The position numbers and the translations under genes were made by a program. Below, in pieces: positions 21,939 to 56,323 of a stretch of DNA of 64,000 nucleotides; within the stretch, counting starts at the first letter, position 1, and every line of letters begins with the position of its first letter. Below the pieces are notes generated by a model that was not told where the DNA came from, made no database searches, and worked only from the letters and a program-made list of their open reading frames with translations. This stretch comes from Candidatus Onthoplasma sp. (lineage in GTDB: Bacteria; Bacillota; Clostridia; Christensenellales; UBA1242). The stretch spans positions 3,017-67,016 of the forward strand of contig JAZQYA010000001.1 in assembly GCA_045633245.1 (NCBI GenBank). Reading direction: 5' to 3'.

Positions 21939-21952
21939 TATTGGAGAAAATT

Positions 21953-23131: not shown

Positions 23132-24330
23132 AAAAACTACTATTTTTAGGCGGATCAATGCAACAAATCCCAGCAATTAAAAAAGCAAAAGAAATGGGTT
23201 TTTATGTGATAACGTGCGATTATTTGCCAAATAATCCTGGACATGCTTATAGTGATGAATATCATAATGTTAGCACAACAGATTTAGATGGTGTTCTCAA
23301 AATAGCAAAAGAACTTCAAATTGATGGTATTGTTGCTTACGCTTCAGATCCTGCTGCGCCAACTGCTGCCTATGTTGCAAATAAAATGGATCTTCCTGGA
23401 AATCCTTATGAATCTGTTAAGTTGTTGACAGAAAAGGATTTGTTTAGAGAATTTTTGGCTGAACATGGTTTTAATTGTCCGCAAGCATGTGGATATTTTA
23501 GTTTTGAAGCAGCATATTCAGAAATTGATAAATTTAAATTTCCTGTTATGGTTAAACCTGTTGATTCATCAGGAAGCAAGGGAGTTGTTAAAATTTATGA
23601 TAAAACAGAACTAATGGCTGCTGTTGAAGAAGCATTATCTTATTCAAGAAGCAAGCGATTTATTGTTGAAGAGTTTATTGAGAAAAAAGGTTATCAAGTG
23701 TCAGGTGATGGATTTTCTGTTGATGGAAAATTGGTTTTCACAAGTTATGGAAACGAACTTTACAGTTCTGTTGGTGGGACTCGTGAATATGTTGCACTTG
23801 GTGAATTTTGGCCAAGTCTTTTAAGCAATGATTTAAAAGAAAAAATAGATGCCGAACTTCAAAGATTAATCACAGCACTTGGAATGAAAACCTGCGCATA
23901 TAATATCGAAGTAATTTTAGATAAAAATGATAATGTATACATTTTGGAACTTGGTCCAAGAAATGGTGGAAGCTACATTCCTCAACTAATTCAATATGCA
24001 ACAGGTGTTGATATGATTGAGTACACTCTTAAAGGTGCAATGGGTTTGGATTGTTCTGAATTAAAAATGACTGGTTCTCAAGGATTTTATAGCAATTATA
24101 TGATTATGAGTATAGAATCTGGTGTGTTCAAAGAAATTTGGTTTGATCAAAAATTTAAGGATAACAATTTATTGGAAGTTCATTGTACGTACTCTAAAGG
24201 AGAAAATGTTAGTGCTTATAAAAACACAACACATTCTTTAGGTACTTTGATTTTCAAGGCTGCAACGCTTGAAGAAATGCTTGAGATCACAAAAAACATT
24301 CATAATTATTATAAGGTTGTTGTTGAATAA
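23128..24330 (+). CDS. ATP-grasp domain carboxylate-amine ligase
   Basis: 400 aa with a pre-ATP-grasp N-domain, PVMVKPVDSSGSKGV and ELGPRNGG. 4-nt overlap with the upstream gene. Confidence 0.75.
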   Translation: MKKLLFLGGSMQQIPAIKKAKEMGFYVITCDYLPNNPGHAYSDEYHNVSTTDLDGVLKIAKELQIDGIVAYASDPAAPTAAYVANKMDLPGNPYESVKLLTEKDLFREFLAEHGFNCPQACGYFSFEAAYSEIDKFKFPVMVKPVDSSGSKGVVKIYDKTELMAAVEEALSYSRSKRFIVEEFIEKKGYQVSGDGFSVDGKLVFTSYGNELYSSVGGTREYVALGEFWPSLLSNDLKEKIDAELQRLITALGMKTCAYNIEVILDKNDNVYILELGPRNGGSYIPQLIQYATGVDMIEYTLKGAMGLDCSELKMTGSQGFYSNYMIMSIESGVFKEIWFDQKFKDNNLLEVHCTYSKGENVSAYKNTTHSLGTLIFKAATLEEMLEITKNIHNYYKVVVE

Positions 24331-24892: not shown

Positions 24893-24968
24893 TGGAGCTG
24901 ATAACGGGAATCGAACCCGTGACCTCCACCTTACCAAGGTGACGCTCTACCGACTGAGCCATATCAGC
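24893..24968 (-). tRNA. tRNA-Thr (anticodon GGT), CCA encoded
   Basis: The reverse complement GCTGATATGGCTCAGTCGGTAGAGCGTCACCTTGGTAAGGTGGAGGTCACGGGTTCGATTCCCGTTATCAGCTCCA folds by hand into a cloverleaf. The anticodon loop is TTGGTAA. Confidence 0.9.
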
Positions 24969-25226: not shown

Positions 25227-25240
25227 AACTACATTAAGAT

Positions 25241-25450
25241 GTTGACGGAAAAGAGTAACTTTGGAAGAGGCTTTTAGTGAGATAAGGATAGTGAGAACTT
25301 ATCAGTACAGCCAAAGTGAAAGACACTTCCCAGTCTTAAAAACAGCCAATAGGTTGCAGTTTTTAAAGTGGTTGAGTTAAACTCAACAAATTAGGTGGCA
25401 CCGCGGTGAGAGTTCATCGTCCTAATGCGATTAGCGTTAGGGCATTTTTT
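25241..25450 (+). promoter_or_regulatory. T-box riboswitch leader, Asp (GAC) specifier
   Basis: Stem I has an AGAGTA element, with ACTTTGG (25258-25264) pairing CCAAAGT (25311-25317). The specifier loop reads GAAA-GAC-A, with GAC at 25322-25324. The T-box sequence AAATTAGGTGGCACCGCG lies at about 25388-25405. A terminator hairpin CCTAATGC / GCGTTAGG plus a T-run sits at 25421-25450. Confidence 0.85.
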
Positions 25451-25489: not shown

Positions 25490-27229
25490 ATGATACACGT
25501 AAACAAATATAGAACAATAGATTGCGCAAGTTTGAGAATTCACAATGTTGGTGAGCAACACACATTATCAGGATATGTTGACACTATAAGAAAGTTGGGA
25601 GGAATAACTTTCTTGGTTTTGCGTGATTTCTATGGCAAAACTCAAATTATTTTACCTGAAAATTTAAATGTTGAATTAAATAAAGAAGATGTTATAACTG
25701 TTTCTGGAAAGGTTGAAGAACGTTCAAGTAAAAATCCACAAATGGAAACGGGAGATATTGAGGTAATAGCAGAAAAAATTGAGATTTTAAGCAGATGTAG
25801 ACATACTTTGCCTTTTGAAATTAAATCAAGTCAAGAAGTTAATGAAGATTTAAGATTGAAATATCGTTATCTCGACCTTCGTGCTGATTATAATAAGAAT
25901 ATGCTCAAATTAAGAAGTGATTTGATGTTGTTCGTTAGAAACTATATGAATAGTATAGACTTTTTGGAAGTGCAAACTCCAATTTTAACAGCATCAAGCC
26001 CTGAGGGAGCAAGAGATTTCTTAGTTCCTTCAAGATTAAACCCAGGAAAATTTTATGCATTGCCTCAAGCTCCACAACAATTTAAGCAATTGCTTATGAC
26101 AAGTGGTGTTGATAAATATTTCCAAATAGCACCATGTTTTAGAGATGAAGATGCAAGAGCAGATAGAAGCCCAACAGAATTTTATCAAATAGATATGGAA
26201 ATGGCTTTTGCAACTCAAGAAGAAGTATTTAAAGTTATAGAGGAATTATATGCTGGCATTTTTGAAAAGTTCGCAGGCAAGCGTCCTGTAACACCATTCA
26301 AAAGAATGACATATCTTGATGCAATGAAAGATTATTGTTCAGATAAGCCAGATCTTAGAAATCCACTTAAAGTGGTTGATGTTACAGATGTTTTCAAAGA
26401 AACAGAATTCAATGCATTCAAAAATAACACAATCAAAGCAATTAAAGTGAATTGTGGAGAAAAGGGAAGAAAATTTTACGATGCATTAACAGAATTCTTG
26501 AAGGGAAGAGAAGCAAAAGGGTTGGCTTATGTTAAGGTAAATGCTGAAGGTGAATTTGAAACAGGGATTAGTAAGTTTGTAACATCAGAACAAAAAGAAC
26601 AGCTTAAAACTATGTTACAATATGAAGAGAATGACACAATTTTCTTTGTTGCAGATGAAAAAGATAGAGCTGTTAAATTTACCAATATGTTAAGAAATGA
26701 ATTGGGTTCAAGATTGAACTTGATTGACGAAAATTCATTCAACTTTGTTTGGATTGTTGACTTCCCATTCTATGAACTTGACGATGAGGGTAAAATTGAA
26801 TTTTCACACAATCCATTTAGCATGCCACAAGTAAGCTTAGAAGAAATAAAGAAAGATCCTCTTAAAGCAAAAGCGTATCAATATGACCTTGTTATAAATG
26901 GATATGAAAGTTTGAGTGGAGGAGTTAGAAACTATGATCCAGAATTGATGGTTGAATTATTTAAAATTGCTGGCTATGGAAGAGAAGTTGTTGAAAATAA
27001 GTTCCCAGCGTTATACAATGCATTCCAATATGGCGCTCAACCTCATTGTGGAGCAGGAGCAGGATTTGATAGAATTATGATGCTTCTTACACACAATGAA
27101 TATATTCGTGATGTTTACGCATTCCCAATGAACAAAAATGGTTGTGACCCATTAACAAATGCTCCAAACGTTGTAACTGACAAACAATTAAAAGATGTTC
27201 ATATTAAATTAGATGTAAAAGGAGAATAA
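25490..27229 (+). CDS. aspS: Aspartate--tRNA ligase
   Basis: 579 aa. Class IIb motifs are present (FLVPSR, QAPQQFKQLLM, FRDEDARADRSPEFYQIDME, GAGAGFDRIMM). Confidence 0.95.
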   Translation: MIHVNKYRTIDCASLRIHNVGEQHTLSGYVDTIRKLGGITFLVLRDFYGKTQIILPENLNVELNKEDVITVSGKVEERSSKNPQMETGDIEVIAEKIEILSRCRHTLPFEIKSSQEVNEDLRLKYRYLDLRADYNKNMLKLRSDLMLFVRNYMNSIDFLEVQTPILTASSPEGARDFLVPSRLNPGKFYALPQAPQQFKQLLMTSGVDKYFQIAPCFRDEDARADRSPTEFYQIDMEMAFATQEEVFKVIEELYAGIFEKFAGKRPVTPFKRMTYLDAMKDYCSDKPDLRNPLKVVDVTDVFKETEFNAFKNNTIKAIKVNCGEKGRKFYDALTEFLKGREAKGLAYVKVNAEGEFETGISKFVTSEQKEQLKTMLQYEENDTIFFVADEKDRAVKFTNMLRNELGSRLNLIDENSFNFVWIVDFPFYELDDEGKIEFSHNPFSMPQVSLEEIKKDPLKAKAYQYDLVINGYESLSGGVRNYDPELMVELFKIAGYGREVVENKFPALYNAFQYGAQPHCGAGAGFDRIMMLLTHNEYIRDVYAFPMNKNGCDPLTNAPNVVTDKQLKDVHIKLDVKGE

Positions 27230-27230
27230 A

Positions 27231-28616
27231 ATGCAAAGAGTTGAATTAAGAGATTTACACAAAATCTACAAAGAATATGCAGACAAAACAATCACAATTT
27301 GTGGTTGGGCAAGAACAGTTAGAGACAGCAAAAACATTGCCTTTGTTGAAATCAATGATGGTGCGTTTAAGTCTGTTCAAGTTGTTGTTGAAAGAGAAAA
27401 AGTAACTAACTATGAAGAAATTGTAAAACAAAGAGTAGGTGCTTCATTTGAAATTAATGGAAGATTAATTTTAACGCCAAATGCTCAACAACCTTTTGAG
27501 ATTAGTGCAGTTGAAGTTAAAGTTCTTGGTGAAAGCGAAGCAGATTATCCACTTCAAAAGAAAGGTCACACGTTGGAATTTTTACGAACGATACCAACAA
27601 TCAGACCAAGAGGAAACTTGTTCAACGCAGTGTTTAGAGTTCGTTCTGTGGCAGCTTTTGCAATTCACAAATTCTTTAATGAAAGAAACTTTGTTTATGT
27701 TCACACTCCAATCATAACAGCAAATGATTGTGAAGGTGCTGGCGAAATGTTCCAAGTTACAACCCTTGATCTTGATAGAGTTGCTTCAAGTGGAAAAGTT
27801 GATTACAATAGAGATTTCTTTGGAAAGAAAGTGTCACTCACAGTTTCTGGTCAACTTCACGAAGAATGCATCACTCATGCATTTGGAAAGACATACACAT
27901 TTGGCCCAACATTTAGAGCAGAAAACAGTAACACAACTCGTCATGCTGCAGAATTCTGGATGATGGAACCTGAAATGTGTTTCTGCGATCTTGATGGACT
28001 TATGGATAATGAAGAAGAAATGATTAAATATGTTATTTCATATGTGATGAAAGAGTGTTGTGATGAAATGGAATTCTTAAACAAATTTGTTGATAAGGGC
28101 TTAATTGAAAGATTAAATAGTATTGTTGAAAACGATTTTGTTCGTCTTGATTATTCAGAGGCTATCACAATTCTTGAGAAGGTTAAAGATCGTTTCACTT
28201 TCCCTGTTAGTTGGGGAACAGATCTTCAAAGTGAGCATGAAAGATACATCACTGAAGAAGTTTTCAAAAAGCCTGTTTTCTTGAAGAACTATCCAAAGGA
28301 TATCAAAGCTTTCTATATGCGTCAAAATGACGACGGAAGAACTGTTGCGGCTGTTGATATGCTTGTTCCAGGAATTGGTGAACTATGTGGCGGAAGTCAA
28401 AGAGAAGAAAGACTTGATGTTTTAACAAATCGCATTAAAGAATTAGGCTTAAAAGAAGAAGATTATGCTTGGTATGTTAATACAAGAAGATACGGCACAA
28501 ACGTTCACGCTGGTTATGGTCTTGGGTTTGAACGTCTTGTTATGTATTTAACAGGAATAAGCAACATTCGTGACGTTGAACTTTATCCAAGAACTGTTGG
28601 AAGTATACAATATTAG
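27231..28616 (+). CDS. asnS: Asparagine--tRNA ligase
   Basis: 461 aa with an AsnRS pattern (GWARTVRDSKNIAFVEINDG, FRAENSNTTRHAAEFWMMEPE, GYGLGFERLVMY). The start is 1 nt after the aspS stop. Confidence 0.93.
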   Translation: MQRVELRDLHKIYKEYADKTITICGWARTVRDSKNIAFVEINDGAFKSVQVVVEREKVTNYEEIVKQRVGASFEINGRLILTPNAQQPFEISAVEVKVLGESEADYPLQKKGHTLEFLRTIPTIRPRGNLFNAVFRVRSVAAFAIHKFFNERNFVYVHTPIITANDCEGAGEMFQVTTLDLDRVASSGKVDYNRDFFGKKVSLTVSGQLHEECITHAFGKTYTFGPTFRAENSNTTRHAAEFWMMEPEMCFCDLDGLMDNEEEMIKYVISYVMKECCDEMEFLNKFVDKGLIERLNSIVENDFVRLDYSEAITILEKVKDRFTFPVSWGTDLQSEHERYITEEVFKKPVFLKNYPKDIKAFYMRQNDDGRTVAAVDMLVPGIGELCGGSQREERLDVLTNRIKELGLKEEDYAWYVNTRRYGTNVHAGYGLGFERLVMYLTGISNIRDVELYPRTVGSIQY

Positions 28617-34151: not shown

Positions 34152-35978
34152 TTATTTTTGTTTTTTGTTTTTTTGTTTTTCGCTAATTGGTTTCCAAAAT
34201 GCTTCAATCAATCTAGATTCTCTAAAATATGAAATGTTTGGACAAACGCTTCTGTGAATTATTATGCCACGTCCCGCAGAGATAAATCCAACAATTTCAT
34301 CACCATACATAGGGTGGCAGCAATTTGCAAATTTAATTAAAATATTATTTAACCCCTTCAAATCCACTTGTTTGTCTGTTGGTTGTGCTAGAGCAATGGT
34401 TGTGTTCCTAACAGGATTTTCAATAGTTGCTTTAATCTGTTTTTGATAGAGTGAAGCAAGTTTGTTTGCAATTGCTTTCGCAGGAATTGCACTTGTTCCA
34501 ATGTTAGCATAGAGCTCTTCAATTTCTGAGTAGTTGTAATGTTTAAGAATTTCATTCATGCCATTTTGAGTTAATTTGCTAACCGAATAACCTTGTTCCT
34601 TAATTGCTGTTTCCAACATTGTTTTTCCAAGTTTGATGGTTTCTTCTTTCATGTTCTTCTTGAAAAAAGCATTTATTTTACTTCTAGCATCGCTTGTTTT
34701 ACAGATTTTCAACCAATCTCTTGATGGGCCTTTTGAATTGGCATTTGTTATGATTTCAACAATATCACCATTGTGAAGCTCAGAATAGGTTGGGGTCATT
34801 TTTCCGTTAACTTTTGCTCCAACACATTTATTTCCAACTTCGCTGTGAATTGAATAAGCAAAGTCAATTGGGGTTGAGCCTGACGGTAAATACACAACTT
34901 TTCCTTTGGGAGTTTGAACAAAGATTTCATTGTTGTAAATATCTTCTCCTAAAGATGAAGATAATTCGTCAATTGAAACGTTTTCATTTTCCATCATTTG
35001 CCTTAACCAAGCAAGTTGAATGTCTAATGTGTCCTGCTTTTTCTTTTTTTCTTTATATAACCAGTGAGCTGCAATACCATATTCTGCATATTGGTGCATT
35101 TCTTCTGTTCTTATTTGTATTTCAACAGGAAAATCTTCAAACAGTACAGTTGTGTGTAAGGATTGATAACCGTTTGGTTTTGGTGTTGCAATATAATCTT
35201 TAAATCTATTTTTTAATGGTTCAACTAAAGAATGAAGTCTTCCAAGAAGAGCGTAACAGTCTGAAACAGTTTGAACCAAAGCACGCACAGCGATAAGATC
35301 ATAAATTTTATCTAGCGAATGGTCTTGAATTTTTTTATAAATGCTATAGATATGTTTTTTTCGGCCGTAAACTCTTCCTTTTATGTTTAGATCTGCCATG
35401 CAGCGTTTAACCAAATTTGTGAGACGTTCAACAATTGGTTGTCTTTTATTAAAACGACTATCAACATTTTCTTGTATTTCATTATAAAGTTTAGGATTGC
35501 TCAACAGAAAAGCGCCATTTTCAAGTTCAGTCTTGTAAGTTGACAAACCAAGACGTGCAGCAAGCGGTGCAAACAGAGAAAAAATTGAAGATGAAAGGAG
35601 CTGTTTTTCTTCTTCTGACTTATCGTTAACGTGACGCAGATCCACAACAACAAAAGCAATTTTGAGCATTATTAATCTGATATCTTTAGTTATTGCAAAA
35701 AACATTTTTCTAATATTTTCTGCTTCAACATCTTGTTGCGAATAATTAATTTTATCAAGTTTATCTAAGGTGATAATGGTGTTGTAAATTTTTTCGTCAT
35801 AATCTTTTTTAATTTCATCCAATGTGATTAATTTGTTTTGAAGCAAACAATAAATAACTCCTTCAAGTTTTTTATCATCACCTAATTTCATATTATCTAG
35901 AACTTCAACAAACTCGCTAACTTTTGCTAACTCAGTTTCATTGAATAATTTTAAAACATTGCTAATTTTCTTTTTCAT
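34152..35978 (-). CDS. RelA/SpoT homolog: (p)ppGpp synthetase with a degenerate hydrolase domain, a TGS domain and a zinc-finger domain, but no ACT/RRM domain
   Basis: Synthetase motifs are RKKHIYSIYKK, GYQSLHTTV and VEIQIRTEEMHQYAEYGIAAHW. The TGS region is IFVQTPKGKVVYLPSGSTPIDFAYSIH, and CCHPMYGDEIVGF...HRSVCPN is present. See the finding for the missing motifs. Confidence 0.85.
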   Translation of the reverse strand: MKKKISNVLKLFNETELAKVSEFVEVLDNMKLGDDKKLEGVIYCLLQNKLITLDEIKKDYDEKIYNTIITLDKLDKINYSQQDVEAENIRKMFFAITKDIRLIMLKIAFVVVDLRHVNDKSEEEKQLLSSSIFSLFAPLAARLGLSTYKTELENGAFLLSNPKLYNEIQENVDSRFNKRQPIVERLTNLVKRCMADLNIKGRVYGRKKHIYSIYKKIQDHSLDKIYDLIAVRALVQTVSDCYALLGRLHSLVEPLKNRFKDYIATPKPNGYQSLHTTVLFEDFPVEIQIRTEEMHQYAEYGIAAHWLYKEKKKKQDTLDIQLAWLRQMMENENVSIDELSSSLGEDIYNNEIFVQTPKGKVVYLPSGSTPIDFAYSIHSEVGNKCVGAKVNGKMTPTYSELHNGDIVEIITNANSKGPSRDWLKICKTSDARSKINAFFKKNMKEETIKLGKTMLETAIKEQGYSVSKLTQNGMNEILKHYNYSEIEELYANIGTSAIPAKAIANKLASLYQKQIKATIENPVRNTTIALAQPTDKQVDLKGLNNILIKFANCCHPMYGDEIVGFISAGRGIIIHRSVCPNISYFRESRLIEAFWKPISEKQKNKKQK

Positions 35979-36095: not shown

Positions 36096-38693
36096 ATGCA
36101 TGATTTATCTGTTAGAGAATGTTTGGACAAATTAAATTCAAACATAAATGGGCTTTCTCAAGTTGAAGTAAACAAGAGATTAAAAGAGTTTGGGAAAAAC
36201 GAAATTGAAAAAACAAAGAAGATGTCTTTTTTGAAATGTTTTTTTAATCAATTTTTAAACATAATGGTTATTATTTTACTAATTTCCGCAGGTGTTTCAA
36301 TCTCTATTGCATTGATAAACAAACAATATTCTGAATTGTTGGAAGGTTTTGTCATTTTGTTTATTGTCATAATAAATGCGCTCATAGGAGTTTTTCAAGA
36401 ATTCAAGTCACAAGCTTGTTTAGATGAATTGCAAAAGTATAACAAAATAAATGTGAAGGTGCTACGTAATGGTGCAGTTATGAATGTTGATAGCACCGAA
36501 CTTGTTTGTGGAGACATTGTGGAAATGGAAGCGGGCAATATGGTTGTTGCAGATATTAGATTAGTAAAATGCAATAACTTTGCTTGTGACGAAAGTCAAC
36601 TTACAGGAGAGAGTGTTCCTGTTGAAAAAAACGCCGAGACAACCTTAAGAAAAAATACACCACTTGCAGAAAGAACAAACATGGCGTATTCTGGAAGCAT
36701 GGTTACAATGGGTAAGGCAATGGGTGTTGTTGTGTCGACCGGAAAAAACACAGAAATGGGCAAAATTGCAAAAATTTTATTTTCAACAAAAAAAGAAACA
36801 ACACCGCTTCAAAAATCGATTAATAAGATTGGTAAAATAATAACGTGGACAGTTGTTGCTGTGTCAATCATGATATTGTTAATCGAATTGATTTGTGGAA
36901 ATTCTGTTGTTGAAGCAATGATGACGGCGGTTGCATTGGCTGTTGCGGCTATTCCTGAAAGTTTGCCTGCTGTAATAACAATCATAATGGCGTTGGGTGT
37001 TCAACAACTTGCTAAAAGGAGATGTATTATTAAACATCTTCACGCAGTTGAAACGCTCGGAAGTTGTGAAATTGTTTGCACAGACAAAACAGGAACTTTA
37101 ACTCAAAACAAAATGGAAGTTGTTGAAGTTTTTTCGGGTTGTGATAATTTAAATGAAGATTATGAATTACGTAATTGTTTGTATTTTTGCAACAATGCAA
37201 AAATGGAAAACAACAAAGTGGTTGGTGAACCAACAGAAAAAGCCTTGTTTGAATACGTTTTAAAACAATATGATTATCACAATTTACCGCACAAAAAATT
37301 CTTACTTGAAATACCGTTTAATAGCGATAGAAAAATGATGACTGTGTTGGTGAACGATTCATGTTTGCAAAGCTACACAAAAGGCGCACCAGAAATTTTA
37401 ATAAAAAAGTGTAAATATATTAAAATAAATGACGAAATTGTGCCATTTTCCAAAGAATTAAGAGAAAAAATTCAAAAAATAAGTAATCAAATGACAGATA
37501 AAGCTTATCGAGTTATAGGATTTTGTTGTAAAAAATTAGATGAATATAACCCAAATGAAGAAATGGAAAATGATATGATTTTTTTAGGGTTGGTTGGTCT
37601 CATGGACAAACCAAGAGAAGAAGTAAAAGCAAGCATTGATAAATGTTTAAGCGCAGGGTTAACTCCAATTATGATCACAGGAGATCATAAGAGAACAGCG
37701 TTTGCAATTGCTCAACAACTAAATATTGCTAAAAATTTAAATCAGGTTATTACAGGTGAAGAGTTGGACAAGTTGAGCGACAAAGAGTTAAAAAAGGTTT
37801 GTCACAAATTAAGGGTTTATGCCCGTGTTACACCTGAGCATAAAGTTAGAATTGTTAAAGCTTATAAAAGTTTAAATAAGATTGTTGCCATGACCGGAGA
37901 TGGTGTTAATGACGCACCAAGTTTAAAAATTGCTGACATAGGCGTTGGAATGGGGAAAAGCGGAACAGACGTGGTTAAAAATGTTGCAGATATGGTTGTG
38001 ACAGACGACAATTTTTCTTCTATTGTTATTGCAATCGAAGAAGGAAGAAAAGTTTACTCCAACATTCAAAAAGCGTTACAATTTTTGATATCCACAAATT
38101 GCGTGGAAGTTTTTGGAATGTTGATTGCATTATTCTTTTTCCCACAATATACGTTCTTGTTGCCAGCGCAAATGTTATTTATCAATTTGGTAACCGATAG
38201 TCTTCCAGCGTTTGCGTTGGGAATGGAAAAGGTTGAAAAAGAAGTTATGGATTCTCCGCCAAGAAATCCCAAAGCAGGATTGTTTAGCGGTAAGGTGGGG
38301 GTTGCAATAATATATCAATCTATTTTGCAAACGGTGATTGCTTTGGTTGGGTTTATTGTTGGTGTGTATTGTTATTCGCCTGAAGTTGCTAGCACAATGG
38401 TTTTCTTTACAATAATTTTCATGCAATTGTTGCATAGCATAAACTGTAAAACAAATAATAGCATTTTCGAAAAAAATTTGTTTGATAATAAAACATTTAA
38501 TATTTGCTTTTTTATTACTTTAATTTTAAATCTCACTGTTGCGTGTGTTCCGTTCATGTATACCCTGTTTGGTTTGGAATCTTTAAACTTCTCTCAATGG
38601 GTTATTGTGATCATTTTATCCGTGTTAATTATTCCTGCATGCGAACTTGTTAAAGCAATATTAATTAAAGAAAAAAATATTAAAAAAATATAA
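36096..38693 (+). CDS. P-type ATPase, Ca2+/cation-transporting (type IIA-like)
   Basis: 865 aa with CTDKTGTLTQNKM, IPESLP, MITGDHKRTA and MTGDGVNDAPSLK. Confidence 0.9.
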   Translation: MHDLSVRECLDKLNSNINGLSQVEVNKRLKEFGKNEIEKTKKMSFLKCFFNQFLNIMVIILLISAGVSISIALINKQYSELLEGFVILFIVIINALIGVFQEFKSQACLDELQKYNKINVKVLRNGAVMNVDSTELVCGDIVEMEAGNMVVADIRLVKCNNFACDESQLTGESVPVEKNAETTLRKNTPLAERTNMAYSGSMVTMGKAMGVVVSTGKNTEMGKIAKILFSTKKETTPLQKSINKIGKIITWTVVAVSIMILLIELICGNSVVEAMMTAVALAVAAIPESLPAVITIIMALGVQQLAKRRCIIKHLHAVETLGSCEIVCTDKTGTLTQNKMEVVEVFSGCDNLNEDYELRNCLYFCNNAKMENNKVVGEPTEKALFEYVLKQYDYHNLPHKKFLLEIPFNSDRKMMTVLVNDSCLQSYTKGAPEILIKKCKYIKINDEIVPFSKELREKIQKISNQMTDKAYRVIGFCCKKLDEYNPNEEMENDMIFLGLVGLMDKPREEVKASIDKCLSAGLTPIMITGDHKRTAFAIAQQLNIAKNLNQVITGEELDKLSDKELKKVCHKLRVYARVTPEHKVRIVKAYKSLNKIVAMTGDGVNDAPSLKIADIGVGMGKSGTDVVKNVADMVVTDDNFSSIVIAIEEGRKVYSNIQKALQFLISTNCVEVFGMLIALFFFPQYTFLLPAQMLFINLVTDSLPAFALGMEKVEKEVMDSPPRNPKAGLFSGKVGVAIIYQSILQTVIALVGFIVGVYCYSPEVASTMVFFTIIFMQLLHSINCKTNNSIFEKNLFDNKTFNICFFITLILNLTVACVPFMYTLFGLESLNFSQWVIVIILSVLIIPACELVKAILIKEKNIKKI

Positions 38694-45595: not shown

Positions 45596-45605
45596 AAATA
45601 AAAAA

Positions 45606-45628
45606 AGACTGAGAAATCAGTCTTTTTT
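45606..45628 (+). terminator. Rho-independent terminator
   Basis: AGACTGA / TCAGTCT stem with a GAAA loop, followed by a T-run. Confidence 0.75.
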
Positions 45629-45788
45629 AAGATCCTTCAAATTGCTTAAGAAATATATATATCGAATTAATTTAATTAAACCTTTTATCTTTTAAGTGAG
45701 AATTGATTTTCCGAACGACTTGGGATTTTGTGAAAGTTCTTGCAAACACTTTCGCAAAAGTACGTTTAGTGAGTGAAAACAATTCGAA

Positions 45789-46346
45789 TTATCCTTTTCT
45801 TGTGAAGAAGTTTAAAAACCTTGCAAAGGTTAGTGTGATTTTGTTTGCATGCTTAATTGCAATTCGTTTAAATATTGCTTTTCCGCCGATGGTAAGACCT
45901 GCAATTATTGCTGCAATAAGCGATGGAATTAAAATTGCCATAAAATTTCCCCAATTATCTATTGCAATTTTTGCAACAATGCTTGCTCCTGCTGCACCAG
46001 ATAAAATTCCACAAACATCACCAATAACGTCATTTAAAATTGAACTAACTTTATCGGCATTTTTAACAAGTGCGATTGCCTGTTTGCTTCCTTTAACTTT
46101 TCTTGCTGCCATTGCGTTAAAGTCTTCAATGTTTGCACTGGCAACTGCAAGTCCTATCATGTCTGTTATAATGGCAAGAGCAATAAAAACCAAAATAACA
46201 ATAATAGCAACCAAAATGGCAGATCCATCAAGAATTAATTCGCTCAATAAACTAAAAGATAGAGAAAGAAAAACAGCCAATATTAAAACAATAATTGGCC
46301 ATATCCACATTTTTTTATTTTTTGATTTATTTGATTTTTGTTTCAT
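45789..46346 (-). CDS. Small polytopic membrane protein (about 4 TM), possibly an OapA-like / DUF21-like partner of the upstream RNA
   Basis: 185-aa ORF with a Lys-rich N-terminus and then hydrophobic segments. It starts 35 nt downstream of the RNA candidate, with no intervening terminator or obvious SD. The family assignment is speculative. Confidence 0.65.
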   Translation of the reverse strand: MKQKSNKSKNKKMWIWPIIVLILAVFLSLSFSLLSELILDGSAILVAIIVILVFIALAIITDMIGLAVASANIEDFNAMAARKVKGSKQAIALVKNADKVSSILNDVIGDVCGILSGAAGASIVAKIAIDNWGNFMAILIPSLIAAIIAGLTIGGKAIFKRIAIKHANKITLTFARFLNFFTRKG

Positions 46347-46380
46347 ATATGTTAAAGCTTTACGCTGAATAATTTAAATT

Positions 46381-46966
46381 ACGAAGGCAACATCTTGAGT
46401 AAACCTTGCGGCATAAGGTTCGGTTGGATTTCCCAATTTTGCACTTTCCCGTTACCAGCAAAGCGGTTTCCCTTTACGCAAAACTTGCACCGAATCGCCA
46501 CTGAGACCACACTATAATCCCCAAAATGCCTCGGATATCACACGAACAGTCTAGAAGTTTTCCTTAACAACATCGGCTAATCTTATCTTTATTTTGCAAA
46601 CGCAATTTCAAAAGCAACTTAAAATAAAATTTGTACTTCATTCTGTTCTAAGTTCACGCTTTATTCCAAGCAATTCACTCAAAGCAGGCTACACCATACA
46701 TAACTTTCGTCACATACGGGTTCCTCTCCTAAGCGATAAAAAGCGAACATGAAATAACCCATATAGATCCGTTTTTACCCACTTAAGTCTCCGCGATAAT
46801 TGGGCTTGAGCATGTATGCCATTACACACGACCCAAAAATCTTAACTCCCAGCACCAGCCCCGATTTGGGCAATCAAAGCCAGCACCACGAACTTCATAG
46901 TTATGCCAGCAATGCTTGTTTCAGCATCCTCAAATAGCATAGTTGACTAGAATACTGCGCCTTCGT
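46381..46966 (-). ncRNA. Large structured ncRNA candidate of about 586 nt (OLE-like or ROOL-class, or unclassified)
   Basis: About 790 bp has no ORF of 60 aa or more on any frame. GC is locally enriched (26/60 and 30/60 in sampled lines, against 11/60 in the flanking spacer). An 8-bp helix joins the two ends. Several local hairpins are present, and a near-consensus promoter lies just upstream on the minus strand. Confidence 0.6.
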
Positions 46967-46974
46967 GTAATATT

Positions 46975-47003
46975 ATATTAGCACACATTTCAAAAATTGT
47001 CAA
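46975..47003 (-). promoter_or_regulatory. Near-consensus extended -10 promoter driving the RNA candidate
   Basis: Minus strand reads TTGACA (complement of 46998-47003), a 17-nt spacer ending in TGC, then TAATAT (complement of 46975-46980). The predicted TSS falls within a few nt of the closing helix. Confidence 0.65.
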
Positions 47004-47157
47004 ATGTTTGTTGTTTTATTAATTTACGACATTTTTATTTGTTAATAATATGTTAAATTAAGAGCAAAATAATAGCATATTTGACATGTGTTAATATTAT
47101 GATTTTTATTTGATTTTTAAAAGTTTGTTTGTTATAATTTTATAAGAAGGGGTAATT

Positions 47158-49212
47158 ATGAAACATTTAAAAACATTGCTTTGTTCGTTATTTGTTATTT
47201 GTTCTGGATTGGTGTTATTTGCCTGTGGTGACAAATCTCTCAAATTCGATGTTAACAAGGTTCTTATTGATGAAGAAAGAGTTTTTACTTATGATGGAGA
47301 AGAGCATGTGATTGAAGTTTCGTATGAAGGTGTTGATGCGGAAATCACATTTGCATTAGAAGATGATAAAAACAACTTCAAGCAATTAGAAGATTTTGAT
47401 ATCATAAATGCAGGGGAATATAACTTTTATTATAGATTATCAGCTAATGGTTATAAAACTTTCACATCCACAGAAACCTTTAACATAACAATTCAACCAA
47501 AGCCAATTGATATTTCTGTGGAAGATCAAGTTTGGATTAAAAGCAAAAACCCCAACAAAATTAATGTTTCTTACACAACAACAAGCCAAGATCAGGTTGA
47601 ACTTGAATTTAGTTTTGGTGAGGAATTTGATCTAAATTCTGCTCAATACGGAGATGAATATCCTATTTATTGCTCAGCAACTGATTCGAATTATGTTGTG
47701 AACAATATTTCAGCAACCTTGCGCGTGAGTGACATTGTTGAAGTTAGAAACAACGATGGAGTTCTTCAAAATTGTTATTCAAGTCTTAATGATGCGGTTT
47801 TAAATGCTAACAGTGGTGACACTTGCATTTTAAATAGTTCTATCTACTTAACTGAATCAATTGAAATAACAAAAGATATTACAATTGATGGACAAAACAA
47901 TAATTATGGCATAAGAGCATCAAATGTGGAATTTGCTTGTTCACGATATGCAGGAAAAGATGTGGCATCAATTTTTAGTGTTATAGATGATAATGCACGT
48001 TTAATATTAAAAGATATTGATTTAAATGGAAATCAAGTTGTGAGAGGTGTTTCTGCTTTTGCTGGAAAAGTTGTAATTGATAATGCAAACATAACTAATG
48101 GCAAAAAGAATGACAGTTGGAGATCTGGTGGTGTTTATATAACCAAATCTGCTAGTTTTGAAATGCTTTCTGGTAAGATTAATAAAAATAACCCAAATGA
48201 TGAAACTTACACTAAATATTGCGCTGATTTATGGATTGGTGCCAATGCAAACGGAACATTGGCATCAATCACAGGCGGGGAAATTGAAAGTGTGTTTGTG
48301 AATTCTAATGAATATTCAGCCAATGGTGCGGGTAAATTTTTCGTTAATGGCGGAAAAATAACAAATGTTTATGTAGAATATGACAGCGGTTATGGTGCTC
48401 AATTAGATTATAAAACGGGTGAAATTGAACACTTAATGATTGCATATAAAAATGACAATTCAAAAGTCTATGGTCATTGCTATGAAATTGCTCCAACTGA
48501 AAATCAAACATATTTTGGTGGAAAAATTTATTCAAACAGCTCAACAGCAGTTAAATATGAAAATGAAACTTATAATACTTTAAACTTGGAAAAAGGAAGA
48601 ACCTATATTTTTGAAAATTGCACATTTAATAATCCTTTAAGTTTAACAGATAAAGTTGGTTTAATTTTCAATGATTGTAGATTTTCATCAACTGAAGTTG
48701 CAACAATTTTATATGTAACATCTGTTTCAAATTTGATTATCAATAACTGCACATTTGATGGAAACACATCGGGTGGATATGCGATTGAAGTAAACCAATA
48801 TTCTGCAACTTGTGAAAACTTGATTATATCAAACAACATTTTCAACACTACTAATAATAAAAATGTTTCAATTTCAATTAAAGAAAGACTTGGATTCACA
48901 GACACGAACATTGCAGAAGAATGGGCAAAAGTTGAAAATCAGGGTTTAATTGAATGTCAAGTTAAAATTATTGGTAACGATTTCACTACGGGAAACAACA
49001 TTATTTGTATTGGTGAAGGTCCTAATCCTGGCAACATTCCGGCAAACACTTCAACAGGCGATTTTGATTTATTATTAAGTGAAAATCTTGATGCGTTAAC
49101 AATTTACAACAAATATAAAGATCATGCATATGTTGAAGAGCAAGATGCTTCAAAGGTTAATGTTGACGCAAAAGCGATTTATGATTCAACAATAGAAGCA
49201 TTTGAATATTAA
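47158..49212 (+). CDS. Surface lipoprotein with N-terminal Ig/MBG-like repeats and a right-handed parallel beta-helix region
   Basis: Signal peptide plus lipobox (LVLFACG). The C-terminal half has repeated NxxF/GN turns (NNCTFDGN, ISNNIFN, IIGNDFT) typical of pectate-lyase-fold repeats. Confidence 0.7.
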   Translation: MKHLKTLLCSLFVICSGLVLFACGDKSLKFDVNKVLIDEERVFTYDGEEHVIEVSYEGVDAEITFALEDDKNNFKQLEDFDIINAGEYNFYYRLSANGYKTFTSTETFNITIQPKPIDISVEDQVWIKSKNPNKINVSYTTTSQDQVELEFSFGEEFDLNSAQYGDEYPIYCSATDSNYVVNNISATLRVSDIVEVRNNDGVLQNCYSSLNDAVLNANSGDTCILNSSIYLTESIEITKDITIDGQNNNYGIRASNVEFACSRYAGKDVASIFSVIDDNARLILKDIDLNGNQVVRGVSAFAGKVVIDNANITNGKKNDSWRSGGVYITKSASFEMLSGKINKNNPNDETYTKYCADLWIGANANGTLASITGGEIESVFVNSNEYSANGAGKFFVNGGKITNVYVEYDSGYGAQLDYKTGEIEHLMIAYKNDNSKVYGHCYEIAPTENQTYFGGKIYSNSSTAVKYENETYNTLNLEKGRTYIFENCTFNNPLSLTDKVGLIFNDCRFSSTEVATILYVTSVSNLIINNCTFDGNTSGGYAIEVNQYSATCENLIISNNIFNTTNNKNVSISIKERLGFTDTNIAEEWAKVENQGLIECQVKIIGNDFTTGNNIICIGEGPNPGNIPANTSTGDFDLLLSENLDALTIYNKYKDHAYVEEQDASKVNVDAKAIYDSTIEAFEY

Positions 49213-50534: not shown

Positions 50535-50590
50535 CAAATATTACACTAGTTTCAAAAGTTGGTGACTTTTTGTAAGGAGTTTTTTGTTTA
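50535..50590 (-). repeat. Right copy of the roughly 50-bp imperfect inverted repeat (3' UTR element)
   Basis: The reverse complement TAAACAAAAAACTCCTTACAAAAAGTCACCAACTTTTGAAACTAGTGTAATATTTG aligns with 49211-49260. Shared blocks are AAACTCCTTA, ACTTTTGAAAC and GTAATA. Confidence 0.6.
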
Positions 50591-51337
50591 TAAAAACAAC
50601 ACGACAAATAAACTTAGCACAATTAGATAAATACTGAAAAAGTATAGTTTATTATTTTTCACTGTTTTAAGCATGATTTTTATGGAGATTAATCCAAAAA
50701 TAAATGATGACAGCATAACTAAAAATATTCCTAACCAGTTTATTGTGATTTGTGAGAAAAATAATTTGTAGCTTTCATAGATTGCACTTGCAACAATAAC
50801 AGGAATGCTCATCAAAAATGAAAAATCAAGAGATTTCTTTTTTTCAACACCAATCAATAGTCCGCAAACCAAGGTTGAACCGCTTCGTGATATTCCGGGT
50901 AGAAGAGCAAATCCTTGACTTAAGCCCATATAAAGAGCAGATTTTTTGTTTATTGATTTTTTGCCATCTTTTCTTAAATCTGCAATCAAAAGCAGTATCG
51001 CAGATAACAAGAAACCCCAAACAAGGGTTTTTGTTGAAAAGTTATCTTCTAAGAACCTGTTAAATAATAGAACTATGATAATGGTTGGAATTGTTGCAAT
51101 AATCAAATTTAAATTTGTTTTGTTTTTCGGAGTTTTAATTAATTCGAAGATTTGTTTTCTGTAGCAATAAAGAACAGCAAACAATGTTCCAATATGTGCA
51201 ACAACGCTGATTAATAGCAAATTATCCAGCTCAAACATGCTTCCAAACAACACAATATGTCCACTGCTTGAAACGGGCAAAAACTCTGTTATGCCTTGAA
51301 TAAATCCTATGAAAATATACTTAATTACGTTTTTCAC
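50588..51337 (-). CDS. uppP: Undecaprenyl-diphosphate phosphatase
   Basis: 249 aa with GFIQGITEFLPVSSSGH and PGISRSGST, the BacA/UppP signatures. Confidence 0.92.
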   Translation of the reverse strand: MKNVIKYIFIGFIQGITEFLPVSSSGHIVLFGSMFELDNLLLISVVAHIGTLFAVLYCYRKQIFELIKTPKNKTNLNLIIATIPTIIIVLLFNRFLEDNFSTKTLVWGFLLSAILLLIADLRKDGKKSINKKSALYMGLSQGFALLPGISRSGSTLVCGLLIGVEKKKSLDFSFLMSIPVIVASAIYESYKLFFSQITINWLGIFLVMLSSFIFGLISIKIMLKTVKNNKLYFFSIYLIVLSLFVVLFL

Positions 51338-54118: not shown

Positions 54119-56323
54119 ATGGAAAAAAAGAAAAATAATCAGTGGAAATCAATATTCACATACGGATTAATATTGCTATTTGCAGTTTTGTTGATTTATT
54201 GGTTTGTTTCTGAAAATGAAAAAGATAAACAAGTGTCTTACACAGAATTTCAACAAATGGTTGAATATGGCCAAGTTGCAGAAATAGATGTGTATGGCTA
54301 CACGGTTAGAATAAGAAAAGTGGGTGGAGTTTCTGATAAAGACTTCCCCAATAAACTTGATGCATATTGCACTTTCATGAGTTACAATGAATTAGTTGCA
54401 TTTGTTGATGAGTATAATCAAGTTATTCTTGACGCAAGAGACGAAAGTCATCCAGACTTCGATAAGTATTGGGGTAAAGATCCTGAAGGAAACATTGTTT
54501 TATTAAACGGAGTTGTTCTTGTTGATGCCAACTATTCATTTGAAAGCGAATCTTGGTTAAGTCAGGTTCTTCCATATGCAAGCATAATTGTTGTGATCGT
54601 ATTGGGTGTTTTCTTGTTTAGATCTATGTCTGGCAACAACAAAGGTTTTGGTTTTGGAAAATCTAAAGCGAAACTTGTTGTTTCAAGCAATGTGAGATTT
54701 AAAGATGTTGCTGGAGCAGACGAAGAAAAACAAGAATTACAAGAAGTTGTTGAATTCTTAAAAAACCCTGCAAGATTTACCGAGCTTGGAGCGAGAATTC
54801 CTAAAGGTGTGTTATTGGTTGGTCAACCAGGAACAGGTAAAACTCTTCTTGCAAAAGCGGTTGCAGGAGAAAGCAAGGTTCCATTCTTTAGTATATCTGG
54901 TTCAGACTTTGTGGAATTGTATGTTGGTGTGGGTGCAAGTCGTGTTAGAGATTTGTTCGATAACGCAAAAGCAAATTCTCCTTGTATTGTCTTCATTGAC
55001 GAAATCGACGCTGTTGGTCGTCAACGTGGCGCTGGAATGGGCGGCGGAAATGACGAAAGAGAACAAACTCTTAATCAATTGTTGGTTGAAATGGATGGAT
55101 TTGAATCCAATAGCGGAATTATAATTCTTGCAGCAACAAACAGAGCAGATGTTTTAGATCCAGCTCTTACTCGTCCTGGCAGATTTGATCGTCAAATATA
55201 CGTTAATCTTCCAGATGTTAAAGGCAGAGAAGAAATCATTAAAGTTCATGCTAAGAATAAAAAGATTTCAGATGACGTTGATTTCCAAAGAATTGCCAGA
55301 TTAACAAGTGGGCTTGCTGGTGCGGATATTGAAAACGTTTTAAATGAAGCAGCATTGCTTACCGCTCGTGACGGAAGATATAAAATCACAATGGTCGACA
55401 TTCAAGAGGGTTTAAATAAAGCCATGATGGGACCAAAGAAAAAATCTCGAGTTGTTAAAGAAGAAGATAAAATCATCACAGCCATTCACGAAGCAGGGCA
55501 CGCTATTATTGCTCAAACTTTAGATAACTGTGATAATGTTCAAGAAATTTCAATTATTCCTCGTGGTCAAGCTGGAGGATATACGCTAACATTAGATGAA
55601 GAAGATCGTTCACATATGACAAAGAAAAAATTGTTAGACACTATAACAATGATGTTGGGTGGACGAACAGCTGAAGAACTTATGTTAAGCGACATCACAA
55701 CCGGAGCATCTAATGACATTGAAAGAGCAACAAAAGTTGCAAGAAAGATGGTTGCAGAATGGGGAATGAGTGAAAATCTTGGCTTAATCAGTTTTGGAGA
55801 TGGTGGAGAAGTGTTTATTGGTAGAAACTATCAAAAACAAGTTCCATACAGTGATGACTTGGCAAACAAAATTGACAAAGAAATTAAAAATATAATCGAC
55901 ACAGCACACAAGCAAGCAATTGAAATTTTAAAAAGCAAAAAAGACGTTATTGAAAAAGTTAGAGATATCTTGCTTGAAAAAGAAACAATTTATAAAGAAG
56001 AATTCGAAATGCTTTATGATGGGGCAAGTGTTGAAGACGTTAAAAGCGCAATAGATAAAAAAGAAGAAGAAAAACGTGCAATTCAAGATAAAGCAAAGCA
56101 AGAAGCAATTGAAGAACACAAAACAAGAGATATAAAGCAAAGAGTGGAAACTGCTGAAGCGCTTGCAAAAGCAGGTGTTATAACAAAACAAGATTTGGAA
56201 AACATTAAGAAAGATGCAGAAAAAGAATTGAACAATTTGAAAACTGCAAATATCTCTGAAAATTCAAAAGAAAATGCAGCATCTGAAAACAAAATAGATG
56301 ATGAAACAGGCAAAAAGGATTAA
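54119..56323 (+). CDS. ftsH: ATP-dependent zinc metalloprotease FtsH
   Basis: 734 aa with [17 protein letters not shown] (Walker A), IVFIDEIDA, the SRH region and HEAGHAI. It has a long Lys/Glu-rich C-terminal tail. Confidence 0.97.

Follow-up and report, generated by a model that had tools for sequence, protein, structure and literature searches.

The OLE RNA gene and its neighbour oapA

The window (the whole stretch of DNA analysed here, 64 kb) carries an OLE (ornate, large, extremophilic) RNA gene on its minus strand, followed on the same strand by oapA. The features of the locus are as follows.

46975-47003, minus strand: sigma-70-type promoter (10/12 match, with an extended -10)
46368-46979, minus strand: OLE RNA gene (RF01071), 612 nt as matched
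46958-46966, minus strand: 5' strand of P1, ACGAAGGCG (covariation, 42 OLE copies)
46944-46958, minus strand: near-invariant 5' box GCAGUAUUCUAGUCA, then the 5' strand of P3/P3.1 (CAAC...GCUAUU) (cmscan alignment and aligned copies)
46911-46929, minus strand: P4 hairpin with the A-rich loop GAAACA (cmscan alignment and aligned copies)
46841-46898, minus strand: P5/P5.1 hairpin, loop GCCCA at 46871-46867 (matches the consensus letter for letter)
46816-46823, minus strand: P6.1 loop AAUGGCAU (near-invariant)
46631-46638, minus strand: P9 apical loop AAGUACAA, with the self-complementary tetramer GUAC
46478-46496, minus strand: 5' strand of P12.2, GAUUCGGUG, a 2-nt junction CA (46487-46486) and the 5' strand of P14 (P13 is missing)
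46449-46458, minus strand: tip of P14.1 with the GNRA tetraloop GUAA (retained)
46381-46389, minus strand: 3' strand of P1, UGCCUUCGU (covariation, 42 OLE copies)
45789-46346, minus strand: oapA, an open reading frame of 185 aa with its ATG 34 nt past P1
45601-45628, minus strand: intrinsic terminator after oapA (12-bp stem and U run)

The first-pass annotation, made from the letters of this DNA, had ranked an OLE/OapA-type locus first, with a ROOL-class RNA and an unclassified large RNA as its other options, and had proposed a search of the minus strand with Rfam covariance models. We observed that the OLE model RF01071 (gathering score 50 bits) matched the minus strand at 46979-46368 with 334.2 bits (E 1.6e-94). 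The match covered model positions 1-616 of 616 and was not truncated, and the core, bounded at both ends by P1 (46966-46381), was 586 nt long. The OLE copies of relatives scored 345-355 bits with the same model. The family is about 600 nt in length with roughly a quarter of its positions near-invariant, and the conserved boxes of the window copy were identical to the consensus (as seen in the cmscan alignment and by comparison of 61 aligned copies). We conclude that 46979-46368 is an ordinary OLE RNA of the family described before, complete in length and with its oapA partner downstream, and that it is unusual only in lacking the P13 hairpin. The first-ranked option was thus the right one, and the full-length match excludes an unclassified RNA; as the annotation had itself allowed, a clean OLE match places the RNA in a known family.

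No match to ROOL, GOLLD, HEARO, raiA, RNase P, tmRNA, 6S RNA or group I/II introns was seen at E<=1 on either strand of 46200-47150, and a scan of the whole window at gathering score likewise turned up none of these classes (introns included). ROOL was excluded on this basis, the filters in the E<=1 search being permissive. The sole other Rfam match at E<=1 in 46200-47150 was to rliH, at a chance level of 13 bits. A ribozyme identity was also rejected, as no Rfam match at E<=1 pointed to one. As had been noted from the sequence, 46369-47157 lacks any open reading frame of at least 60 aa (the two longest have 52 and 50 aa), and the OLE alignment accounts for the entire region, so that a decayed protein gene was rejected.

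The compositional claims of the annotation were exact: its GC counts (26/60, 30/60 and 11/60) were reproduced, and the GC content is 40.5% in the OLE RNA, 30.7% in the window and 19.1% in the upstream spacer. The motif CCAGC occurs at precisely the five positions given, where 0.48 occurrences would be expected from base composition, and all five lie within conserved OLE stems.

OapA and the host clade

The 185-aa protein, described earlier as having about four transmembrane segments, is a homologue of OapA. This identification comes from synteny (of 80 related loci, 74 have OLE and, immediately after it on the same strand, an oapA homologue), from four hydrophobic segments in the hydropathy profile (residues about 14-36, 42-70, 107-128 and 133-158), from the basic loop AARKVKGSKQAIALVKNADK (residues 80-99) and from a weak similarity to CNNM. 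OapA proteins are small, with four transmembrane helices and a conserved basic cluster on the cytoplasmic side. A profile and structure-database search of the protein, which had been proposed, was productive in part. Pfam gave a weak CNNM match (E 2e-5, 24.7 bits, below the family cut-off of 28.4), but a PDB sequence search returned nothing meaningful (best E 0.6), and NCBIfam holds no model that recognises the protein. The CNNM/DUF21 transmembrane domain is common to OapA and the MpfA/CorC/CNNM Mg2+ transporters, and MpfA is treated in the literature as the all-protein counterpart of the OLE-OapA particle; unlike these transporters, OapA consists of the membrane domain only, without CBS or CorC domains.

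We found 3,282 OapA homologues. The closest relatives are gut MAGs of 'Candidatus Onthoplasma' with 81-85% OapA identity (class Clostridia, order Christensenellales, GTDB family UBA1242), and homologues adjoin OLE also in cultured Clostridium, Caloramator, Fonticella and Guopingia genomes. Judged by its closest relatives, the host falls among the Bacillota, anaerobic or extremophilic, in which OLE occurs. Genomes of the UBA1242/Onthoplasma clade are below 1 Mb (PMC12306168), and a GTDB-wide survey has counted 2,822 OLE copies.

The genomic context, which had been called unusual, is so in one respect, as neighbours of the dxs/ispA type are absent. However, the isoprenoid-lipid gene uppP/BacA is near: it directly precedes OLE in most of the clade and lies 3.6 kb upstream in the window. 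One relative (L009) has oapA without an adjacent OLE.

Long-range helices

In OLE RNAs, the long-range helices P1 and P3/P3.1 close the molecule and set domain 1 apart from domain 2. The perfect complementarity reported between the two ends of the RNA was confirmed, ACGAAGGC (46966-46959) pairing with GCCUUCGU (46388-46381). This end-closing helix fits the published stem P1, and has 9 predicted base pairs in the window copy. An equivalent helix of at least 7 bp joins the 5' and 3' ends in 38 of the 42 OLE copies, and its sequence differs among them (GAAGG/CCUUC, GUGG/CCAC, GAUGG/CCAUC, GACGG/CCGUC, GGAGA/UCUCC). The helix had a mean length of 8.5 with a sequence's own partner; this fell to 5.7 when the tails were shuffled, and to 5.9 with foreign partners, taken as those that differed at 4 or more of 9 positions. 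The shuffle control is moderate (the observed value is reached by 14% of shuffles per sequence), and a control using all cross-pairs is weak, because the core GGUGGCG is common to many OLEs. The support for P1 as a pairing thus appears to lie in the many different compensating sequences.

The 3' partners of P3/P3.1 (UAGC...GUUG) lie at about 46586-46570. In the window copy, CAAC can pair with GUUG and GCUA with UAGC, with 2 more pairs and one U-U mismatch (about 10 bp in total). P3.1 covaries widely in relatives. A comparison of this spacer across related genomes, proposed at the outset, found it to be conserved, with covariation in P1 and P3.1.

Two internal hairpins had also been put forward, and the complementary strings are present, but they do not represent conserved structure. 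GGGUU...AACCC (46718-46760) was rejected as a chance pairing, since it is lost in two relatives (L006 and L004); one of its arms falls in a clade-specific loop insertion. AACCUU-N7-AAGGUU (46402-46420) was rejected as an alternative fold, since it is non-complementary in most other OLEs; its sequence is conserved within the clade and overlaps the consensus 3' strands of the P12-series helices.

Dimerisation loops, k-turn sequences and P7-P9

All predicted dimerisation loops (P4, GCCCA of P5.1, AAUGGCAU of P6.1, and P9) are present in the window copy. The A-rich loop of P4 is a dimer contact in published structures, and the P5.1 and P6.1 loops form a kissing contact when the RNA dimerises (PMC12265935). 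The P6.1 loop reads AAUGGCAU in 33 of the 40 copies shown and AACGGCAU in the other 7. The flanks of P5/P5.1, AUGAAGUUC (46898-46890) and GGGAGUUAAG (46850-46841), equal the consensus at the sequence level; in Halalkalibacterium halodurans these flanks refold into a k-turn bound by OapC/bS21 (PMC9723947).

The tetramer of the P9 loop is GUAC throughout the closest clade and GGCC in most OLEs, with GCGC, GAUC and AGCU elsewhere, and its palindromy is retained in most copies shown. A change of tetramer that keeps self-complementarity (GUAC for GGCC) gives independent support to the homodimer kissing contact seen by cryo-EM. The P7-P9 region (model positions 198-383) aligned throughout: compared with the model, the P7 loop holds a 16-nt insertion, P8 falls short by 3 nt, and P9 differs in length by no more than one nucleotide.

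Absence of P13

At the site of P13, the cmscan alignment has a local end that skips 21 model positions for 2 nt. This site measures 2-6 nt in the window and in all 16 nearest aligned copies (L001-L019), whereas nearly all of the more distant OLEs have a P13 hairpin of about 20 nt, most of them GNRA-looped. This hairpin, with its GNRA loop and single-nucleotide bulge, is the primary OapB-binding site, and the loop of P14.1 is a weak secondary OapB site in H. halodurans (PMC7936274). Loss of the OapB site in P13 has already been reported for other reduced-genome gut lineages, and since published variant OLE RNAs also lack P13, its absence is compatible with membership of the OLE family. As P13 is absent in the whole clade, the OLE particle of this clade most likely assembles without OapB at the primary site. 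Without P13, the four-way junction P12.2/P13/P14/P15 would be left with three arms.

We also looked for the protein partners in the 64-kb window. A Pfam scan of 52 ORFs gave no KOW or L7Ae domain, and three small unannotated ORFs had no match to OapB or YbxF in the PDB. To our knowledge, the genes for OapB (KOW/SBB) and OapC (YbxF, of the L7Ae family) are not normally linked to ole, and their absence from the window says nothing about the rest of the genome.

Promoter and transcript

The minus-strand promoter was present as described, with TTGACA (47003-46998), a 17-nt spacer and TGcTAATAT (46983-46975). Its predicted start is near 46968, 1-3 nt ahead of stem P1. The number of promoter-like sites in the region was not above shuffled expectation; TTGACA-17-TGnTAATAT is kept, in position and in sequence, in 12-13 relatives (L001, L002, L004-L006 and L010-L016), and its distance from the GCAGUAUUCUAGUCA box is equal across them.

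Between OLE and the ATG of oapA at 46346 we found no promoter-like site on the minus strand and, in agreement with the annotation, no terminator-like site. The simplest reading is that ole and oapA would form a single transcript ending at the terminator at 45628-45601, since the 34-nt gap holds neither a terminator nor a second promoter. The palindromic A/T flanks of this terminator could also serve a convergent MBL-fold gene that ends at 45595. The ATG of oapA lacks an SD-like core, as had been stated. When this crude test is applied to all 56 window genes, only 28 have such a core, so its absence is not unusual here.

Downstream of OLE, four relatives show a terminator-like hairpin and U run (found by the scanner in L005 and by eye in L013, L015 and L016), and a separate oapA promoter was confirmed in L005 (11/12) and L016 (11/12). 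Taken together, these hairpins and promoters indicate that co-transcription of ole and oapA is probably not a conserved requirement.

These data bear on a rival reading, in which OLE would work chiefly in cis as the very long, structured 5' leader of the oapA mRNA, setting how this mRNA is translated or how stable it is, and would not be a component of a free-standing RNP. Within the window, oapA seems to depend on the OLE promoter, given the short gap without promoter or terminator and the missing SD-like core. However, half of the window genes also lack an SD by this test, and the terminators and promoters in L005, L013, L015 and L016 make OLE an independent unit in close relatives. Moreover, OLE of H. 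halodurans is an abundant trans-acting RNP (PMC12265935), and conservation of 600 nt across the family goes far beyond the needs of a leader. We consider a role mainly in cis to be quite improbable.

A probable functional ole-oapA locus

From the conserved sequence features together, we conclude that the region is very probably a functional ole-oapA locus. A strong dedicated promoter would start an OLE RNA of about 590-600 nt, with the transcript running into oapA and ending at 45628-45601. The RNA keeps the OLE architecture of P1, P3/P3.1, P4, the P5.1 and P6.1 loops, the P9 loop, the k-turn sequences and the P12-P14 junction. By analogy with H. halodurans and two Clostridium OLE RNAs, two such RNAs may dimerise through the P4, P5.1/P6.1 and P9 loops. 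OapA, a CNNM-like four-helix putative divalent-cation transporter, would bind the RNA and hold it at the membrane, which P3/P3.1 has been proposed to cross (partial cryo-EM structures lie behind this proposal). The roles of OapA, OapB and OapC, the dimer and the membrane model are described in PMC12265935, PMC7936274, PMC9723947 and PMC11332333. The particle may help against excess Mg2+, cold, alcohols and poor carbon sources; membrane localisation by OapA and the stress phenotypes of deletions are known only for H. halodurans (PMC12265935). Lacking P13, the particle would assemble without OapB at its primary site.

We also weighed whether the window copy is a decaying relic, an OLE that is losing function in a shrinking genome and whose erosion would have begun with P13. 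In favour of this are the small genomes of the host clade (below 1 Mb; PMC12306168), the deletion of P13, the slightly weakened P3.1 of the window, and L009, which has oapA without an adjacent OLE. However, the score of 334 bits is near those of the relatives, and the promoter, conserved boxes and dimer loops are all intact. P1, P3.1 and the P9 palindrome have all undergone compensatory change, which points to continuing selection. As P13 is lacking across a whole clade with 50-85% OapA identity, its loss is old and stable, and that so small a genome (about 0.8 Mb) retains 612 nt of non-coding gene speaks for function. Decay is therefore highly improbable. That the region holds another large RNA class (ROOL, GOLLD, HEARO, raiA, group I/II intron) or a decayed protein gene has a negligible chance. 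The size of about 600 nt and the gut/rumen-type host are similar to those of ROOL, but only OLE and the chance-level 13-bit rliH match appear at E<=1, there is no ORF of at least 60 aa, and the full-length OLE alignment covers the entire region.

Comparison with described OLE RNAs

Full-length OLE RNAs (from H. halodurans, Clostridium acetobutylicum and C. botulinum) have the same size (about 600 nt) and the same helix order as the window copy. The boxes GCAGUAUUCUAGUCA, AUGAAGUUC, GCCCA, GGGAGUUAAG, AAUGGCAU, CUAGACUGU, UAAAGGGAAACC and GGGAAAUCC are near-identical, P7, P8 and P9 are of normal size in both, and both have oapA immediately downstream and an anaerobic Bacillota host. With respect to the 'full-length' type as defined by Fernando & Breaker 2024, the window RNA has the length of P7-P9 but lacks P13 (2 nt in place of about 21). 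It further differs from these RNAs in the P9 palindrome (GUAC, not GGCC), in that of P4a (CAUAACUAUG in place of AUCGAU) and in the 16-nt insertion in the P7 loop. It has its own promoter and lies outside the long polycistronic isoprenoid/DNA-repair cluster, and it comes from a mesophile of the gut with a genome below 1 Mb, not from an extremophile.

OLE variants 1 and 2 are found in uncultured gut bacteria with reduced genomes, like the host of the window copy, and the P13 nucleotides that OapB binds, absent from the window RNA, are often missing from variant 1 too. However, P7, P8 and P9 are shortened in variant 1, and P7 and P8 are missing in variant 2, whereas all three are of full size in the window RNA; at 612 nt it is longer than the reduced forms among related loci, which span 381-528 nt. 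The lineage (Christensenellales family UBA1242) also differs from those of both variants.

Significance

The OLE family, its oapA partner and its presence in reduced-genome gut Bacillota are already published, and a P13-less OLE in a minimal genome is a modest lead. We suggest, tentatively and at somewhat less than even confidence, that UBA1242/Onthoplasma (genomes of about 0.8-0.9 Mb) has a distinct OLE subtype that is full-length except for P13, has its own strong promoter and lies beside uppP. The window copy indicates that the OapB-binding hairpin can be lost without the shortening of P7-P9 found in the described variants. Should OapB also be missing from UBA1242 genomes, they would have a natural OLE particle that is independent of OapB and whose RNA is otherwise complete; for the role of domain 2, such a minimal system would be cleaner than the TANB77 and RF39 variants. 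Natural variants of OLE, one of the largest conserved RNAs of bacteria, are useful comparative data on its biochemical role. Here, a 612-nt non-coding gene with a strong promoter is kept in a lineage with genomes below 1 Mb and, if the subtype is real, this would add to the evidence that OLE merits keeping under extreme genome reduction.

Identity of the RNA and its neighbour

We observed that a scan of the whole window with Rfam 15 gave a match to the OLE RNA (RF01071) at 46979-46368 on the minus strand, with 334.2 bits (E = 1.6e-94; gathering score 50). The match covered model positions 1-616 of 616 and was not truncated. The first-pass annotation had put an OLE/OapA locus first, with ROOL or an unclassified RNA as alternatives. 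The first hypothesis was correct, since a second Rfam search of 46200-47150, with the filters relaxed and matches accepted to E ≤ 1, added only rliH at 13 bits, a chance match. No ROOL, GOLLD, HEARO, raiA, ribozyme or intron match was seen in that search, which left the ROOL alternative without a match. A clean OLE match was to reclassify the find as a known family, and the RNA is indeed a member of the already known OLE family (described in 2006, with a genome-wide survey in 2024).

The minus strand of 45600-47400 was also read directly and its ORFs were listed. As had been claimed, no ORF in 46369-47157 reached 60 aa, and the GC counts of 26/60 (46381-46440), 30/60 (46801-46860) and 11/60 (47041-47100) were exact. 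The GC content is 40.5% in the RNA, against 30.7% in the window. The five reported copies of CCAGC (46455, 46849, 46855, 46880 and 46906; 0.48 expected) were recovered, and all of them fall inside conserved OLE stems.

Features of the ole locus in the window, and separation signals in two related loci (L numbers denote loci encoding OapA homologues)
47003-46975, minus strand: OLE promoter, TTGACA-17-TGcTAATAT (promoter scanner)
46346-45789, minus strand: oapA ORF, 185 aa (ORF listing)
45628-45601: 12-bp terminator after oapA
47158-49212, plus strand: divergent beta-helix surface-protein gene, between uppP and OLE
50588-51337, minus strand: uppP/BacA, 3.6 kb upstream of OLE
L005, 5845-5955, and L016, 5802-5830: ole/oapA separation signals (terminator-like hairpin / second promoter)

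The 185-aa product had been read as a protein of about four transmembrane segments, and we found four hydrophobic segments together with a basic loop, AARKVKGSKQAIALVKNADK. The Pfam CNNM/DUF21 membrane domain matched it at E = 2e-5 and 24.7 bits, just below the curated cut-off of 28.4. The literature describes OapA as having four predicted membrane helices and a conserved cluster of positive residues, as a relative of the MpfA CNNM domain, and as the product of the gene most often found directly downstream of ole. The hydrophobic segments, basic loop, CNNM similarity and position all agree with this description.

The protein collection contained 3,282 OapA homologues, and 80 genomic loci encoding such homologues were taken for synteny. 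With the window's RNA as query, nhmmer placed OLE upstream in the same orientation in 70 of the 80, and Rfam added four (74/80 in total); its presence in close relatives was also confirmed by a further check. Two loci contain no DNA upstream of the homologue, and in four (L009, L025, L060 and L073) the upstream DNA was present and OLE was not found. In L009 (4626-6555), from a Hadza-gut Clostridia metagenome-assembled genome, the OapA homologue shows 63% identity in the locus search and 76% over its C-terminal part by tblastn, and about 150 nt separate it from the end of an upstream tyrosyl-tRNA synthetase gene. OLE was not found by Rfam or nhmmer in this 12.5-kb locus; either ole has relocated within the genome, or oapA functions here without an OLE RNA. 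A 221-aa TTG-started ORF (45703-46368, plus strand) lies antisense to nearly all of the window's oapA, and is most likely a shadow ORF arising from membrane-protein codon bias.

Transcription of ole and oapA

The minus-strand promoter proposed earlier was also found by the scanner, and its sequence and position are kept in 13 relatives, while promoter-like sites in the region are no more numerous than in shuffles. It would set the transcription start 1-3 nt before the first helix. The scan of the window detected no terminator or promoter between the OLE RNA and the oapA ATG, bearing out the reported absence of a terminator there. The remark that the 185-aa gene has no obvious SD also held, as no SD-like core was found; by the same crude test only 28/56 window genes have one. 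The promoter, the fold, the adjoining oapA and the lack of intervening signals suggest a single transcript, which would start near 46968 and end in the terminator at 45601.

Four relatives have a hairpin resembling a terminator, with a U run, after OLE: L005 (scanner) and L013, L015 and L016 (by eye). A separate near-consensus oapA promoter (11/12 with TG) was confirmed in L005 and L016. These signals indicate that the RNA is autonomous in those relatives and not merely an oapA leader. Unlike in the window, ole and oapA then form two transcription units.

Structure of the RNA

The ends of the RNA had been proposed to pair, and ACGAAGGC (46966-46959) is complementary to GCCUUCGU (46388-46381). 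We compared the 5' and 3' ends of 42 OLE copies, anchored on conserved boxes, and a helix of at least 7 bp was present in 38. Its mean length was 8.5 for own ends, against 5.7 for shuffled tails and 5.9 for tails from RNAs with a different 5' strand. The pairs compensate between lineages (GAAGG/CCUUC, GUGG/CCAC, GAUGG/CCAUC, GACGG/CCGUC, GGAGA/UCUCC). This helix is absent from the Rfam consensus structure; it fits the published stem P1, assigned to domain 2 (PMC12265935), and we infer that it is this stem. Two internal hairpins of the first-pass annotation were not supported. GGGUU/AACCC is not conserved, being lost in the closest relatives, while AACCUU/AAGGUU clashes with the consensus 3' strands of the P12 helices, which it overlaps, and is non-complementary in most other OLEs.

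Cryo-EM has placed dimer contacts in P4 and in the P5.1/P6.1 loops (PMC12265935), and the corresponding loops are all present in the window: A-rich in P4, GCCCA in P5.1 and AAUGGCAU in P6.1. The P9 apical loop (46631-46638, minus strand) carries GUAC, where most OLEs carry GGCC and others GCGC, GAUC or AGCU. In the 61-copy alignment this tetramer varies yet remains self-complementary in most copies shown, as expected of a homodimer kissing loop; a few (L056, L065, L047, L036 and L043) carry UAGGCAUA, in which no palindrome is obvious. The P3/P3.1 helix, a proposed membrane-spanning element, shows strong covariation throughout the family and could form about 10 pairs in the window, with one U-U mismatch. 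The P5-flanking sequences, which refold into the OapC k-turn (PMC9723947), are identical to consensus, and P7, P8 and P9 are of normal size. In the P4a region (46896-46905, minus strand), the palindrome AUCGAU is a proposed OapA-binding site in H. halodurans. The window and its nearest relatives have CAUAACUAUG instead, slight variations are seen in the remaining members of the Onthoplasma clade, and other gut lineages carry AUCUGU or ACCUGU. Co-evolution of the OapA contact is possible.

The one clear departure from the model is the P12.2/P13/P14 junction, where 21 model positions are replaced by 2 nt. In the 61-sequence alignment, the P13 position holds 2-6 nt in the window and in each of the 16 aligned copies closest to it (L001-L019), and a hairpin of about 20 nt, mostly with a GNRA loop, in nearly all other OLEs. 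In the crystal structure (PMC7936274), the primary binding site for OapB consists of the GNRA loop and the bulge of P13. A second, weaker site in the GNRA loop of P14.1 is retained as GUAA. As the whole clade lacks P13, assembly of the particle probably does not involve OapB at the primary site. Neither OapB nor OapC was found among the 52 ORFs scanned in the 64-kb window.

Genomic context and comparison with described forms

The nearest relatives by OapA (81-85% identity) are gut metagenome-assembled genomes of "Candidatus Onthoplasma", placed by NCBI in Clostridia, Christensenellales, and by GTDB in the family UBA1242. UBA1242 genomes recovered in a 2025 paper are reduced (0.76-0.92 Mb) and lack many biosynthetic pathways (PMC12306168). 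The window carries housekeeping and envelope genes.

The first-pass annotation had called the genomic context unusual. This was only partly right: the usual dxs/ispA-type neighbours do not flank ole, but an isoprenoid-lipid gene, uppP/BacA (undecaprenyl-pyrophosphate phosphatase), is still nearby or adjoining in the clade. In L005, L011 and L013-L016 it is the gene immediately before OLE, in the same orientation. As in the window, a beta-helix gene (up to 684 aa) intervenes in L004 and L006; an extra 273-aa ORF between uppP and OLE in the window was not detected in either. In three RF39-like loci (L053, L075 and L077), oapA is followed by an SDR gene and then, within about 1.5 kb, by a uppP homologue (29-31% identity). 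OLE and the lipid carrier of cell-wall synthesis may be recurrently linked.

Genes for RelA/SpoT (34152-35978, minus strand), a P-type cation ATPase (36096-38693, plus strand) and FtsH (54119-56323, plus strand) lie within about 12 kb of ole; their functions (stress response, ion transport and membrane quality) resemble the published themes for OLE neighbours. A T-box leader (25233-25427, plus strand; 93.3 bits, just at the gathering score of 93) precedes adjoining class II synthetase genes (25490-28616, plus strand), AspRS-type with a GAD domain and then AsnRS-type; a tRNA-Thr(GGU) gene (24893-24968, minus strand) lies just upstream of it on the opposite strand. A large envelope-polysaccharide cluster (about 7343-24330) encodes a sugar transferase, a Wzy-like polymerase, several GT2 glycosyltransferases, RmlA/RmlD/dehydratase-type enzymes, a flippase, two aminotransferases and an ATP-grasp ligase, a large coding share for a genome below 1 Mb.

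Fernando and Breaker (2024) reported 2,822 OLE genes in Bacillota from an Infernal search of GTDB R214. They described variant 1, mostly from TANB77, with short P7-P9 and the OapB site on P13 often absent, and variant 2, mostly from RF39, without P7 or P8; both come from uncultured gut bacteria with reduced genomes in which OapB/OapC are largely absent. In comparison, the window RNA is full-size except for P13, an intermediate form in a third reduced-genome gut lineage. The UBA1242 copies were very probably already counted in that survey, since the standard model scores them above 330 bits. Reduced forms of 381-528 nt were also present among the loci examined. The 381-nt OLE of Clostridium sp. 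UBA1056 (L042, 5523-5903) still matches the model end to end, and the accessible text of that survey describes no variant this short; 464-nt copies in Tenericutes/Bacilli-labelled gut genomes (L053 and L075, 5518-5981; L077, 585-1048) also match end to end.

Together, the original observation is accurate and its leading interpretation correct. The locus combines a strong promoter, which is conserved, with an adjoining oapA and an OLE fold that is intact and still under selection. By analogy with the literature, the RNA would dimerise, OapA would anchor it in the membrane, and the particle would help the cell against Mg2+ and other stresses. The modest remaining lead is that an OLE RNA without P13, otherwise full-length, is kept in a minimal genome.
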